Virus record (IMG/VR): IMGVR_UViG_2681813161_000004 | Source of the DNA: a virus | Taxonomy: Duplodnaviria > Heunggongvirae > Uroviricota > Caudoviricetes | Strand: one strand, 5' to 3' | DNA: 22,216 nucleotides | In this document: piece by piece, positions 12,777-17,579 of the stretch | How positions within the stretch are numbered: the first letter of the stretch is position 1 | Layout: the number at the start of each line of letters is the position of its first letter | Notes under the pieces: model-generated | The model's database searches: none | Told to the model about the DNA's origin: nothing | Seen by the model: only the letters and a program-made list of their open reading frames with translations | Made by a program: the position numbers and the translations under genes

Positions 12777-13476
12777 TTACTGAGAAAGTTTATTGATGGA
12801 AAGGAAACCGCCGAAATTACCGGTATTGTTGCGCAACTCACACCCGCGCATACACTTGCTGCATTTGTCCTTCCGGATATCCGTCGTTGGTTTGTCGAAC
12901 TCGTCAGCCACTGCCCTGCCCGTGTAACCACACTCATCAGAACGGTAGGTCCACATACAGGTATTCGCCAGCATGATACGCCCCGGGAAAACCGCGCCAT
13001 CCGTCTCCGTTGGTGTGGCCAGCACAAAAGAGGCACTGACCGCGCTCAGTTCGCTGCACTGCTCGATGCGCCAGCGGCTGATCACCTCCTGCTCCGGATC
13101 GGCGTCACTGTTTCCGTTGACGAAGTTCACCGCATCCAGAAAACGGGCGTAAACCTTACGCCGGACCACCGTTCCGCCGACCAGACTCTGCAGATCTTCC
13201 GCCATCCCGGCGACCATACCGTACAGGTTAGAAACCGTCAGCGTGGGGCGCGTACTGGTGCCTTTGCCATTCAGTTCAAAACCACTCCCCCTGAATGGGA
13301 TACGGCTGATACTGTCGCCCCTGCCAGGTGACCGGCTCACCTTTTTCGTTCTGCTCATTACAGAAAAAATAACGTTCTCCACCGACCTCTGTCAGGTCGA
13401 TTTCCCAGAGCACCACGCTGGCCGACTGCTCCGCACGGGTGCATTCATTCAGTGTTTCCTGCCGGATATCCTGCAT
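12777..13476 (-). pseudogene. L: Tail tip protein L, disrupted by a +1 insertion in a G-run (five C on plus strand, 13287-13291)
   Basis: N-terminal piece (13276-13476) MQDIRQETLNECTRAEQSASVVLWEIDLTEVGGERYFFCNEQNEKGEPVTWQGRQYQPYPIQG then stop; C-terminal piece in another frame resumes ...GSGFELNGKGTSTRPTLTVSNLYGMV...FLSINKLSQ. Removing one G from cagggggagtgg restores PYPIQGSGFELNGKG, exactly as in lambda L from recall. Confidence 0.85.
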
Positions 13477-13805
13477 CAGTTCACCACCTGTTCAAAATCG
13501 GCCGTTACAGTCACCCATAACGCCCCCACGCTTGCCGACCATTTACGACAAGCCACCCTGATCGGTTTCCAGTCATAAGGTGGCGTCCACTGAAATGCGC
13601 GGACGCCACCGTGCCGTTCCAGAAAGGCTTTTAAAGGTGGGTGTTCACCTTTACGAACACGTATCGTCACGCTGTAAGTCGACAGCAGATTATTCAGTCC
13701 CGCCGGGCGACGCTGTTCATAACCATCACCCAGCTTCACTGCCACCACTTTTGGCTCTGATACCACATTCATATCCGGGCGCACCTTCCAGCGAAACGTC
13801 TCCAT
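13476..13805 (-). CDS. M: Tail tip protein M
   Basis: 109-aa ORF METFRWKVRPDMNVV...GDGYEQRRPAGLN...WTPPYDWKPI...FEQVVN, matching lambda M from recall; start overlaps the H stop (TAATG), stop overlaps the L start (TGATG). Confidence 0.93.
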   Translation of the reverse strand: METFRWKVRPDMNVVSEPKVVAVKLGDGYEQRRPAGLNNLLSTYSVTIRVRKGEHPPLKAFLERHGGVRAFQWTPPYDWKPIRVACRKWSASVGALWVTVTADFEQVVN

Positions 13806-16800
13806 TACCGGTATGCTCCACTTAACCGGCCACCATCACGGGCCTGCTGTTGCATAAAGTCCGCGGCCGCTTTTTTCCCGAGGTCATAAACCACCTTCAG
13901 TGCTGCCGGACCTATCTGCCCGTTCGTGCCGTCGTTATTGATCCCGATGTTGTACTGCGGGGCAAACATCACCATGCCTGAACCACCAGTATCCGCCACA
14001 ACCCCCAGCTTACCATCAGCACCGCGACGCAGTGGCAGAATGGCTTCAGGTCCCGCTTCCCCCATCACACCCGCGCCTTTTGCAAAAGCAAAAAACGTCG
14101 GACGGTTAACCACCGTGCCACTGTAGCGACTCAAATCAGCAGACTGGTAAACACCGCCATCAGCATTAGTCGTGAAGCCGAATAAAGAGCCGACGCCCTT
14201 TACCGCCTGCATCATGGCCATCTGTGCCATAATTCTGGCCATATCTGACAACAGGGAAGAGGTGAAGGATTTAAAATTCAGCTTACCGGTGGTACAGAAT
14301 GTCGCCAGTGCATTACCGGCACTGCTGAATGCCACTGTAAACATCTGTTCTGCCGTTCCCACCGCATTATCCGCATCCGCCGTAAAATTCTGAAACGCCC
14401 GCATGGCACCGTTTTTCCAGTCGCCCTGCGCCACTTCCAGTTCCTGCCAGTAGCGTTTGTTTTCATTCAGTTGTCGCTTCAGGCTCCCCTTCAGCACCTC
14501 CTCAGCCCTCCGGTAGTCCTCCGTCCCGTAAGTGCCTTTCTGGCGACTGTCATTCTCAAGCTGTTGCAACTGTTGCCGGTATTCCTGCCGGATGCGCAAC
14601 TGTGCCTGGTAGCGCTGCCGCTGCTTATCCCCCATACCTGCAGTGGCAATATCCAGATTGTGCTGCTCACGCAGTGCACGTTCTTTGTCTGCCAGCTGGC
14701 TGGTCAGCTGAACCGTTTTTTTTCTCAGGTCGTTAAGCGCTGTCTGTTTCTGCAGCTCCTGCTGTTTCACATCCAGCAGCGTCAGCGCCTGAATCAGCTC
14801 ATTCTTACGGGCCAGCACACTCTTTTCATCTGCCGTCAGCTTTTTCCCGTCCAGGTCGCTGATGCGCTGCTGCAGGGCCAGAAGCTGTTTATGCGCTTCA
14901 GTCATCCTTTCAGTGGCAATGCCTGCTGACTGTCTGGCAGCAGCAATCTGCCCTTCCACCTGTGCCTGCTGCTGACTGTACTGCAGCAATAACCGGGTGG
15001 CCTCATCATTACGGGTTGCCCGTGTATTTTTCTTAATGGCTTTTTCGTAACGTTCATTTTCACGCTGTATCGCCGCATCCCTGACAGCCTGGTCGGCGTA
15101 CTGCATGGCATTAATACGCGCAATTTCCCGCTGATGTCGTGCAGCTTCCGTTTCATTCATCCGGTTCAGCGCGGCATTTTCAGCATTCCGGCGTTTCTGT
15201 TGCTCCTGGTAATTCCGTTCTGCCTGCGCTTTTGCATCCTGCAAATCCTTCCGGCGTTTTTTCTCCTGAAGATCGTTAAGACGCTGCTGATCGTACTCCA
15301 CCTGTGTGGAGGCGTTTGTCCACGGATATTTTTTCGCGCGCTGAATTTTTTCCTGTAACGCATCAATCTGCGCATCCAGCGAGTCTTCACGACCAATATT
15401 CATGGCCGCATCCCAGAACTGCTTCCACCAGTCAGACAAGGTTTGCAGCGTACTACCCAGCGCATTGAGATTATTATCAATATCAGATGTGCGTTTACCG
15501 GTTTCCTCTGCCAGCGCAGACATGGCGATCCGGGCCGCATCACTGGACCGCCCCTGCTCCCCAAGGACGCGTATCTGCTCAAGCTGAGTGGCAGTCAAAA
15601 AATGCAGCGCATTGTCCAGCGCCTTCGCGGCATTTACAGGATCATCCTTCAGCCGCTTAAACTGATTTATGGTATCGCTGACCGACTGGCCAACCGATCG
15701 CTCCATCTGTGCGGCAGCTTTCGCCACCATACCAATATCGTTTCCATGAAATGCCCCACTGCCCACCACCTGTGCCAGCGCACCGGCTGCCGCATGTTGC
15801 GTGATACCATTCCCGGATATGGCCCGGCTGAGTTTCCACAACTGCCCGACAGTGACACCGGCATAATGTCCCGTCAGCGCCAGCTGACGGTTAAATTCCT
15901 CGCCCTCCTTCCGGCCGTCATGCCAGGCTTTACCCAGACCCAGGACCGCCGCGACAAGTCCGCCAATAACGCCGCCAGTCATCATGCCTTTCGGCGACAT
16001 CAGTGCGCCTGTCCATCCGGCACGGTTAGCCAGCGTTATCCCGGATCCCCTCAGCGCACCAAAATTGCCGCGCGCCATCTGACTGATTAACACCCCCAGC
16101 TCCCGCCGGGCTGCCGCACTTTTCAGCCCCAGCGAATGTGTGGCTTTTCCTGCCCGCTCCATTTTGCGGATATACACTTCTGCAGCACTGCTTACCCCCA
16201 GCTGAGCCGCCCTGGCGCGAAGCAACTCAGAAGACGACAGATTCTGGCGGGTTGCCTGCTCTTTAAGCTGGCGGATAAACGCCGCTTTCTGCCGGGTGGC
16301 CTGTTCCTCTGCCTGCGTCAGGGCACGGGTTTTCGCCGTGATCTCCGAAATCAGCGCCAGATAATCCTGCTGACCAACCCCGCCACTGTTTCTGGCCTGT
16401 CGGATCTGCTGCTGAATACGCTGTAATTCCTGAAGCCCCGCACCGGCCTGTTTCACACTGTCAATCTGGCGATAAAAGGCGGCAGCCGCTTTATCCTGCG
16501 CCTCCGCCAGTGCCCTGGCCTGCGCCTGTTCCTCGCGCATTTTCTGATTCAGGGCATCCACGCGCAGACGGGTTTGTTCCACCTCACGGGCCATGCGTTC
16601 ATGAGCCCGTGCATTCTTCTCCACCGTCTGCGCATGGGCTGATGCTGCTGTTGCAGCCGAAGAAGCCGCATGCATTGTCTGCCGGGCCGCCTGAGTCTGA
16701 CGCTCCATAAAACGCTGCATACGGGCAGAAGACCGTTCTGCATCACCGGCTGCACCATTCAGAAGGTTTTTGATACGGGGAATTTCATTTTTAAACTCTG

Positions 16801-16846
16801 CCGCATCAATCCCCAAATCAATGACCAGGTTGGCTATCTGGTCCAT
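13805..16846 (-). CDS. H: Tail tape measure protein H (about 1013 aa from the ATG at 16846)
   Basis: Long intact ORF; coiled-coil Ala/Gln/Arg-rich middle; C-terminus ...NNDGTNGQIGPAALKVVYDLGKKAAADFMQQQARDGGRLSGAYR matches the lambda H C-terminus from recall. Start chosen at the ATG preceded by GGAGGTG; the ORF-track start is a TTG ten codons upstream. Confidence 0.9.
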   Translation of the reverse strand: MDQIANLVIDLGIDAAEFKNEIPRIKNLLNGAAGDAERSSARMQRFMERQTQAARQTMHAASSAATAASAHAQTVEKNARAHERMAREVEQTRLRVDALNQKMREEQAQARALAEAQDKAAAAFYRQIDSVKQAGAGLQELQRIQQQIRQARNSGGVGQQDYLALISEITAKTRALTQAEEQATRQKAAFIRQLKEQATRQNLSSSELLRARAAQLGVSSAAEVYIRKMERAGKATHSLGLKSAAARRELGVLISQMARGNFGALRGSGITLANRAGWTGALMSPKGMMTGGVIGGLVAAVLGLGKAWHDGRKEGEEFNRQLALTGHYAGVTVGQLWKLSRAISGNGITQHAAAGALAQVVGSGAFHGNDIGMVAKAAAQMERSVGQSVSDTINQFKRLKDDPVNAAKALDNALHFLTATQLEQIRVLGEQGRSSDAARIAMSALAEETGKRTSDIDNNLNALGSTLQTLSDWWKQFWDAAMNIGREDSLDAQIDALQEKIQRAKKYPWTNASTQVEYDQQRLNDLQEKKRRKDLQDAKAQAERNYQEQQKRRNAENAALNRMNETEAARHQREIARINAMQYADQAVRDAAIQRENERYEKAIKKNTRATRNDEATRLLLQYSQQQAQVEGQIAAARQSAGIATERMTEAHKQLLALQQRISDLDGKKLTADEKSVLARKNELIQALTLLDVKQQELQKQTALNDLRKKTVQLTSQLADKERALREQHNLDIATAGMGDKQRQRYQAQLRIRQEYRQQLQQLENDSRQKGTYGTEDYRRAEEVLKGSLKRQLNENKRYWQELEVAQGDWKNGAMRAFQNFTADADNAVGTAEQMFTVAFSSAGNALATFCTTGKLNFKSFTSSLLSDMARIMAQMAMMQAVKGVGSLFGFTTNADGGVYQSADLSRYSGTVVNRPTFFAFAKGAGVMGEAGPEAILPLRRGADGKLGVVADTGGSGMVMFAPQYNIGINNDGTNGQIGPAALKVVYDLGKKAAADFMQQQARDGGRLSGAYR

Positions 16847-17154
16847 AACGCACACCTCCGGAAATACCTTCCCCAAGATGCATCAGTTCTTCGTCCGTTC
16901 GCTCCGGTATCCCGTTCTCTTCCGGTAAAAGGCTGAAATCAGCCACCGCAGCATCACTGCTGCCGGACACCATTCTCACGATCAATGCCTTCAGCGAGGC
17001 AAACTGCGCATCCATCCACACATCACTGAAGCTCTGCATCCGGAAATAATCGCCCCCTCACCAAGCTCAGTGGCCGACATTTCCGACAGCATCCGCCGCC
17101 AGTCTGCCCGCCGGAACTCCCGGGCAAGCCGCATGACAAACTGCATTTCCCGCG
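16818..17154 (-). pseudogene. T: T region of the G-T tail assembly chaperone (-1 frameshift extension of G), apparently interrupted by a further frame change near a five-C run (plus 17053-17057)
   Basis: The -1 frame from the G slippery site is open and protein-like to a stop at 16991-16993 (...REMQFVMRLAREFRRADWRRMLSEMSATELGEG...); a third frame then carries the protein-like ORF 16818-17039 (MQSFSDVWMDAQFASLKALIV...), which ends 29 nt into H. The two pieces cannot be joined without a 1-nt indel around 17040-17060. Confidence 0.45.
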
Positions 17155-17541
17155 TCAGGACTTTTCCGGCGTCAGCGCCTCATGATCATCATCCCCGGCA
17201 TTCTCAATGGTCCCCATACCGCTCAGCGACAGAACCCTCTCCGCCCCCGCGCCCAGCGCATCATACGACCATGTTGTCATAATGGATGCGCAAAGCGTCT
17301 CAACATCCTGAGACTGCTCAGCATTCCACAGTGAGCGGGAAACCAGCCAGGCATTGATATCCATTCCCATACGCAGAAAAGCAATCTGTCGTTCAGCCTC
17401 CGGCAGTTCTCCCTCCTGTGCATCAAACTTTGCCGTTCGCTGCTGAACAAACGTCAGATATTCAATTCTCTGCAGCCCGGACAGCTCACTGAGCACCACG
17501 GACTGTTTTTCATAATTAAACGTATCCTGTTTCAGAAACAT
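17155..17541 (-). CDS. G: Tail assembly chaperone G
   Basis: Starts MFLKQDTFNYEKQSVVLSELSGLQRIEYL..., compare lambda G MFLKTESFEHNGVTVTLSELSALQRIEHL from recall; candidate slippery heptamer G GAA AAG (plus 17161-17167) five codons before the stop, at the position of lambda's G GGA AAG. Confidence 0.88.
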   Translation of the reverse strand: MFLKQDTFNYEKQSVVLSELSGLQRIEYLTFVQQRTAKFDAQEGELPEAERQIAFLRMGMDINAWLVSRSLWNAEQSQDVETLCASIMTTWSYDALGAGAERVLSLSGMGTIENAGDDDHEALTPEKS

Positions 17542-17557
17542 CATGTTCTCCGGATGC

Positions 17558-17579
17558 AAAAAGCCCCGGATAACCGGGC
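17558..17579 (-). terminator. Terminator/attenuator-like hairpin followed by T5 between V and G
   Basis: - strand gcccggttatccggggc followed by ttttt; stem cccgg/ccggg (5 bp, loop ttat, closing g:c uncertain); lies between the V stop (17599) and G start (17541). Confidence 0.45.

Follow-up and report, generated by a model that had tools for sequence, protein, structure and literature searches.

Probable inactivation of T by a one-nucleotide deletion in the lambda-type G-T tail chaperone cassette of a defective Shigella prophage

The region between V and H in the window (the whole stretch of DNA that was analysed, 22,216 nucleotides) is, with high confidence, part of a lambda-type tail assembly chaperone cassette (V-G-T-H) of a defective lambdoid prophage, in which T appears to have been inactivated by a real, inherited deletion of a single nucleotide. 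The host of this prophage is Shigella, of the boydii/flexneri-serotype-6 lineage. Both the kind of gene pair and the frameshift-site variant that it carries are already known, and a G/GT pair is ordinary for lambda-type phages. The importance of the finding is slight beyond correct annotation: the appropriate label for T of this Shigella prophage is pseudogene, with a one-nucleotide deletion in a Trp codon as the cause.

The G gene, its neighbours and the frameshift site

The genes that define the cassette are the following.

17602..18339, minus strand: V, major tail protein, intact, upstream of G (tblastn, 98.8% identity, 246 aa)
17155..17541, minus strand: G, tail assembly chaperone, intact, 128 aa, ending ...LTPEKS before its stop codon (Pfam PF06894, Phage_TAC_2)
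17161..17167, minus strand: inferred -1 slippery heptamer G GAA AAG, zero-frame codons GAA AAG, one codon before the G stop
13805..16846, minus strand: H, tape measure protein, intact, 1013 aa (tblastn, 99.5% identity, residues 1-1013)

A Pfam search matched residues 1-119 of G to PF06894 with an E value of about 1e-39, and gpG of the WP_000478927.1 type is 100% identical to it over the 128 aa. Two short ORFs lie between V and H, and the order in the window is V (17602-18339), G (17155-17541), the T fragments (16818-17164) and H (13805-16846), with the start of H at 16846 overlapping the 3' end of T. The same V-G-T-H order was assigned in relatives by Pfam families, their tape measure proteins belonging to TMP_2, TMP_4 and Tape_meas_lam_C. 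When the proteins of an intact E. coli prophage (locus L019) were compared with the window by tblastn, V, G, H, M, K, I and most of J were found to be uninterrupted and in lambda order. The original prediction had proposed a G-T tail chaperone pair here, and both the Pfam families (PF06894 and PF06223) and the gene order bear this out; its coordinates for the end of G, the heptamer, the stop at 16991-16993, the ORF at 16818-17039 and the run of five Cs are all correct on the minus strand.

The arrangement resembles that of lambda, in which G/GT likewise lies between V and H and belongs to PF06894 (G) and PF06223 (T), and in which T likewise occupies the -1 frame overlapping the 3' end of G and ends inside the start of H. 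The two systems differ in three respects. Lambda has the heptamer G GGA AAG (GCG GGA AAG at the homologous place) where the window has G GAA AAG, so that re-pairing in the P site would be near-cognate in the window; the slip site is one codon from the G stop in the window and six in lambda; and T of the window, unlike that of lambda, is broken by the one-nucleotide deletion.

The 3' end of G reads ...ACG CCG GAA AAG TCC TGA, with the stop at 17155-17157 on the minus strand. The -1 frame opens at 17179, just 25 nt before the G stop, which confines the shift to seven codons, and within these the sole plausible re-pairing motif is G GAA AAG; after the heptamer the -1 frame begins KVLTREMQFVMRLAREF.... 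The heptamer does not strictly follow the X XXY YYZ rule, as the P-site GAA would re-pair to GGA with a G-U pair. The junction CCGGAAAAGTCCTGA is identical in all relatives of this G/T lineage examined, including phages mEp460, cdtI, Tritos, HannyBb and Ayreon. The corresponding bases are CCG GAA AAG TCC TGA in Gifsy-2, whose GT fusion shows 53% identity, GCG GAA AAG CCC in phi80 and GTG GAA AAG CCC in LLS. The heptamer is kept in four lineages (mEp460, Gifsy-2, phi80 and LLS) despite different flanking codons; phi80/LLS and Gifsy-2 carry it at the place homologous to that in the window, although they show 37-53% protein identity to the window, have other flanking codons and retain intact T frames, and the G/T overlap in phi80 and LLS is longer. 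In the LLS record (PQ299149.1) a joined CDS is accompanied by a feature named 'minus-one programmed translational frameshift site GGAAAAG'. Judged by this conservation, G GAA AAG is the putative standard frameshift site in this G/T lineage and in several more, and the earlier label of a variant slippery site, which suggests something special to this sequence, does not hold.

In intact relatives, most ribosomes would terminate at the end of G and a few per cent would slip by -1 on G GAA AAG. From general knowledge of frameshifting, the A-site Lys-tRNA would move from AAG to AAA with cognate re-pairing, while the P-site Glu-tRNA would move from GAA to GGA, keeping two Watson-Crick pairs and a G-U pair in the middle position. 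The slipped ribosomes would continue into T to produce the G-T fusion, which would link the tape measure protein to the major tail protein. We infer these tRNA mechanics and this frameshift rate, as well as the loss of chaperone function in the window. Among the tetramers studied in E. coli reporters A_AA.G shifts by far the most readily, and tetramers without a stimulator are barely above background (PMC4066793). Folding of 17060-17200 for a downstream stimulatory RNA structure gave z = -1.06, which is not significant, and an Rfam scan of the whole window returned no family at the gathering score. A literature search for GGAAAAG in phage tail genes turned up no published experiment on this heptamer.

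The inspected records of this lineage (L001, L002, L015, L019 and Ayreon, MF807953.1) enter G and T as two separate CDS with T beginning at an internal ATG, and in Ayreon MF807953.1 (L014) T is called shorter, at 87 aa. A joined ribosomal-slippage CDS appears only in the distantly related phage LLS. A joined CDS of the LLS style, placed at G GAA AAG, would be a more accurate annotation for the related records.

The T fragments and the site of the lesion

T of the window is divided as follows.

17057..17164, minus strand: T part 1, 36 genuine T codons read in the -1 frame of G (KVLTREMQFVMRLAREFRRADWRRMLSEMSATELGE), from alignment with intact T
17056..17057, minus strand: deletion site, the T of a Trp codon TGG being lost between the two bases, from alignments
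16991..17056, minus strand: out-of-frame tail of the truncated GT' (GAIISGCRASVMCGWMRSLPR) with its stop at 16991-16993, from translation
16818..17054, minus strand: T part 2, the remaining 78 T codons (GDYFRMQSF...GPDSQPGH and stop) in the other frame, from tblastn and PF06223

Two references were aligned with the window, E. coli FDAARGOS_943 (99.8%, the nearest copy among complete E. coli genomes) and phage mEp460 (96.4%); up to the lesion T part 1 is identical to the intact T of both. At the lesion these two read GGT GAG TGG GGC GAT (G E W G D) and the window reads GGT GAG GGG GCG AT; the sequence of the intact relatives is GAGTGGGGC and that of the window is GAGGGGGC. The run of five Gs on the minus strand (five Cs on the plus strand) at 17053-17057 arose because the T of TGG was lost from between its flanking Gs. 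The G/T cassettes of mEp460, cdtI, Tritos, HannyBb, Ayreon and about 1,800 E. coli prophages show 96-99.8% nucleotide identity to that of the window, with the same junction CCGGAAAAGTCCTGA and a T sequence that is identical apart from the deletion; the copies of this group that were inspected have an intact TGG and a T of 115 codons, whereas the window and its Shigella relatives are missing that T base. The ancestral peptide at the lesion is ...ATELGEWGDYFRMQ... (in its longer form ...ATELGEWGDYFRMQSF...), and the lost Trp aligns with a Trp in lambda (ADW), in phi80 and LLS (GDW) and in Gifsy-2 (SEW). A run of six Gs read as five, which had been put forward as the repair that would restore a continuous product, is excluded by the alignments, in which the lost base is the T of TGG; the ancestral peptide is accordingly not ...ELGEGGDYF....

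On the far side of the lesion, residues 32-109 of T map by tblastn to 17054-16821 with 100% identity in a different frame. T part 2 contains the ORF at 16818-17039, which encodes the C-terminal 73 residues of T (MQSFSDVWMDAQ...GGVRYGPDSQPGH) and matches Pfam PF06223 (Phage_tail_T) with E = 1.8e-8. When the lesion is repaired, the G-T fusion matches both Pfam domains (G and T), and its T extension aligns with lambda T over 112 residues at 38% identity (BLASTP, E = 4e-28). The original prediction had described a protein-like -1 frame with the remainder of T in another frame; alignment and Pfam show both to be T-like, and the homology of the ORF at 16818-17039 to T is confirmed by its PF06223 match. 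The -1 frame of the window runs for 57 codons to 16991-16993, compared with 115 in intact relatives. The break comes after just seven residues of the Pfam T domain, which leaves the 183-residue GT' without nearly all of it, and a Pfam search found no T domain in the truncated GT' as encoded. Any ribosome that shifted frame here would make this 183-residue product and stop at 16991-16993. On the alignments, then, T in the window is best described as a true pseudogene. In an exact look-up the 51-aa truncated ORF was absent from the protein collection and from all contigs, probably because gene callers pass over an ORF so short or so heavily overlapped.

The bases created by the deletion suggest one way in which the allele might be leaky and not dead, namely a second -1 slip on the new G_GGG that would yield a full-length GT with Gly in place of Trp (...ELGEGGDYF...). 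On GAG GGG GCG the tRNA could re-pair as a cognate one position back, after which GGC GAT TAT, codons of the T frame, would be read; moreover, in one carrier of the deletion (L012) the genes in 6.2 kb between capsid protease and tape measure are all called as uninterrupted ORFs. If such rescue took place, two tandem -1 shifts would supply a trace of GT with the Trp-to-Gly change, and this could explain the presence of the deletion in the L012 prophage. In E. coli reporters, however, G_GG.G did not prove shift-prone, its above-background signal being ascribed to internal initiation (PMC4066793), and the yield, being the product of two rare shifts, would be negligible. The Trp that would be replaced is conserved from lambda to Gifsy-2, and the surrounding prophage has no head genes and a broken L. 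We consider rescue of this kind highly improbable.

It is also very doubtful that the T fragments have taken on separate roles, for example through expression of the 73-aa ORF at 16818-17039 alone as a new small protein. This ORF keeps most of the Pfam T domain and is annotated as a protein in many assemblies, being called on 478 contigs, but no ribosome-binding sequence is evident before its ATG, where the upstream bases are gattatttccggATG. The T of this family is produced solely in fused form with G, as established for lambda (Levin 1993; Xu 2013/2014; both through PMC5009743), and the decay of the neighbouring tail genes argues against selection on the module.

Recurrence of the deletion in Shigella genomes

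The identical deletion was found in about 20 fetched loci (L003-L010, L012, L020-L027 and L029-L032) from roughly a dozen independent assemblies, both finished and draft. Nine of the ten places in the first fetch carried it (CP000036, CP026811, four other CP0268xx chromosomes and three drafts), and a second fetch with 10-kb flanks added further carriers. Among the carriers are S. boydii Sb227 (CP000036), S. flexneri serotype 6 strain 64-5500 (CP026811) and six further CP0268xx chromosomes, together with the drafts AMGB01, PSSQ01, PSST01 and, in a more divergent prophage, CABVWS01. Over 15.4 kb the window matches CP026811 at 99.96% identity; its identity to Sb227 is 99.94%.

Outside these genomes the intact form prevails. 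Seventy-nine usable IMG/VR contigs have the same G/T junction, and 75 of them contain an uninterrupted T of 115 codons, while three have this deletion and one has another deletion; the product ending at 16991 is therefore not full length, in agreement with the original prediction of a broken T. When 71 nt with the deletion in the middle were searched against 5,426 complete RefSeq E. coli genomes, about 2000 places but no exact match came up, and most of these places differ from the window by a one-base gap alone (98.6%). The deletion allele had no match among the GTDB species-representative genomes, a result that carries no information if, as is assumed, Shigella is without a representative of its own there. 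The deletion is a clean lineage marker, shared by Sb227, S. flexneri 6 64-5500 and several other assemblies and without an exact match in the 5,426 complete E. coli genomes.

The original prediction had offered an indel of one nucleotide or a miscalled run length as alternatives. The indel is indeed present near the run of five Gs (five Cs), but a miscall does not agree with its recurrence in about 20 loci. An error of sequencing or assembly, in which the length of a homopolymer or a single base was misread and T is really intact, would find some encouragement in a second one-nucleotide deletion close by, which affects the following feature.

17558..17579, minus strand: V-G intergenic intrinsic terminator, hairpin at 17563-17579 and T-run at 17558-17562, annotated as rho-independent in mEp460

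One C has been lost from the 5' arm of this terminator, leaving three at 17576-17578 in this window only; all Shigella relatives in which that stretch is exact have four. The loss lowers the predicted stability from -16.2 to -10.9 kcal/mol, and could be a private mutation or an assembly error. Over the 821-nt G-T stretch, moreover, the window differs from the closest complete E. coli copy by two indels and zero substitutions. Against an error in T, the same deletion recurs across the fetched loci, in independent assemblies and in three IMG/VR contigs, and the missing base is a T between Gs, not a member of a homopolymer. We give very little weight to the possibility of an error, and from these sequence comparisons the T deletion is judged to be a real mutation inherited within Shigella.

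Decay of the prophage and history of the deletion

The T deletion is one of several inactivating lesions in the prophage remnant, whose other relevant features are listed here.

12780-13476, minus strand: L, minor tail protein, frameshifted by one extra G (G4 to G5 at 13287-13291)
4673-5952, minus strand: side tail fibre gene (stf), frame broken by a 4-nt deletion near 4898/4899
19325-19492: remnant of a head-tail joining gene (W-like), last 57 residues, adjoining IS66
19567-21956: IS66 element, with orfA at 19567-19986, TnpB at 19983-20333 and TnpC at 20364-21956
6767-7923: IS3-family element with ORFs of 100 aa and 272 aa, just after J
2283-4034, plus strand: ipaH-type gene, intact, 583 aa, with LRR_TTSS and NEL domains (type III effector E3 ligase), at the distal end of the remnant

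The deletion in stf is the loss of one unit of a CTGG CTGG tandem repeat, and J ends at 1149 aa compared with 1159, which is 10 codons early. IS66 truncates the W-like gene and takes the place of the head genes; in CP026811 host genes lie directly beyond this element, which indicates that the head genes are gone. Pseudogenes have accumulated genome-wide in Shigella (PMC3218036). The window resembles the ipaH-bearing prophage remnants of Shigella, in that it is an IS-riddled lambdoid element with frameshifted structural genes beside an intact ipaH, and it provides one more example of them. The remnant has probably been retained for its ipaH effector gene. Genes of the ipaH type are also found in enteroinvasive E. 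coli; the intact ipaH here fits the Shigella origin that is shown by the 99.96% match to CP026811.

The deletion in T is present in two differently rearranged chromosomal contexts. The first, which is that of the window, Sb227 and CP026811, has IS66 directly against Z, host genes (Aldedh, glutaminase, DUF4186 and GGDEF) at its side and a broken L. The second retains FI, W and Z together with an intact L; its U and V are truncated and its J is split. Pieces of a mannitol-dehydrogenase-family gene occur in both, which suggests that the T deletion is older than the later IS-mediated rearrangements and the lesion in L. The extra G in L is common to the window, Sb227 and CP026811 and absent from the other Shigella copies with the T deletion, which makes the L lesion the younger of the two.

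One carrier stands apart from this history. In CABVWS010000008.1 (L012) the T deletion, at about position 2975 of the locus, lies on a G haplotype of the mEp460 type, in a prophage that is only 89.6% identical over about 5 kb and whose genes are called as uninterrupted ORFs over the 6.2 kb from capsid protease to tape measure. The sequence of T does not vary between haplotypes. Because L012 has the other G haplotype, a single origin of the deletion requires recombination, or else the deletion arose twice; the L012 allele is thus the result of either recombination between lambdoid prophages or recurrent deletion.

Two copies of IS1 are present in direct orientation at the beginning of the window, from 1 to about 770 and from 1213 to about 1980, with ORFs of 167 aa and 91 aa repeated in each. 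Beside them, at 727-954 on the minus strand, is a 75-aa N-terminal fragment of a mannitol-dehydrogenase-family protein. Fragments of that family flank the prophage in related genomes, suggesting that the element is located in or beside a mannitol-dehydrogenase-family gene.
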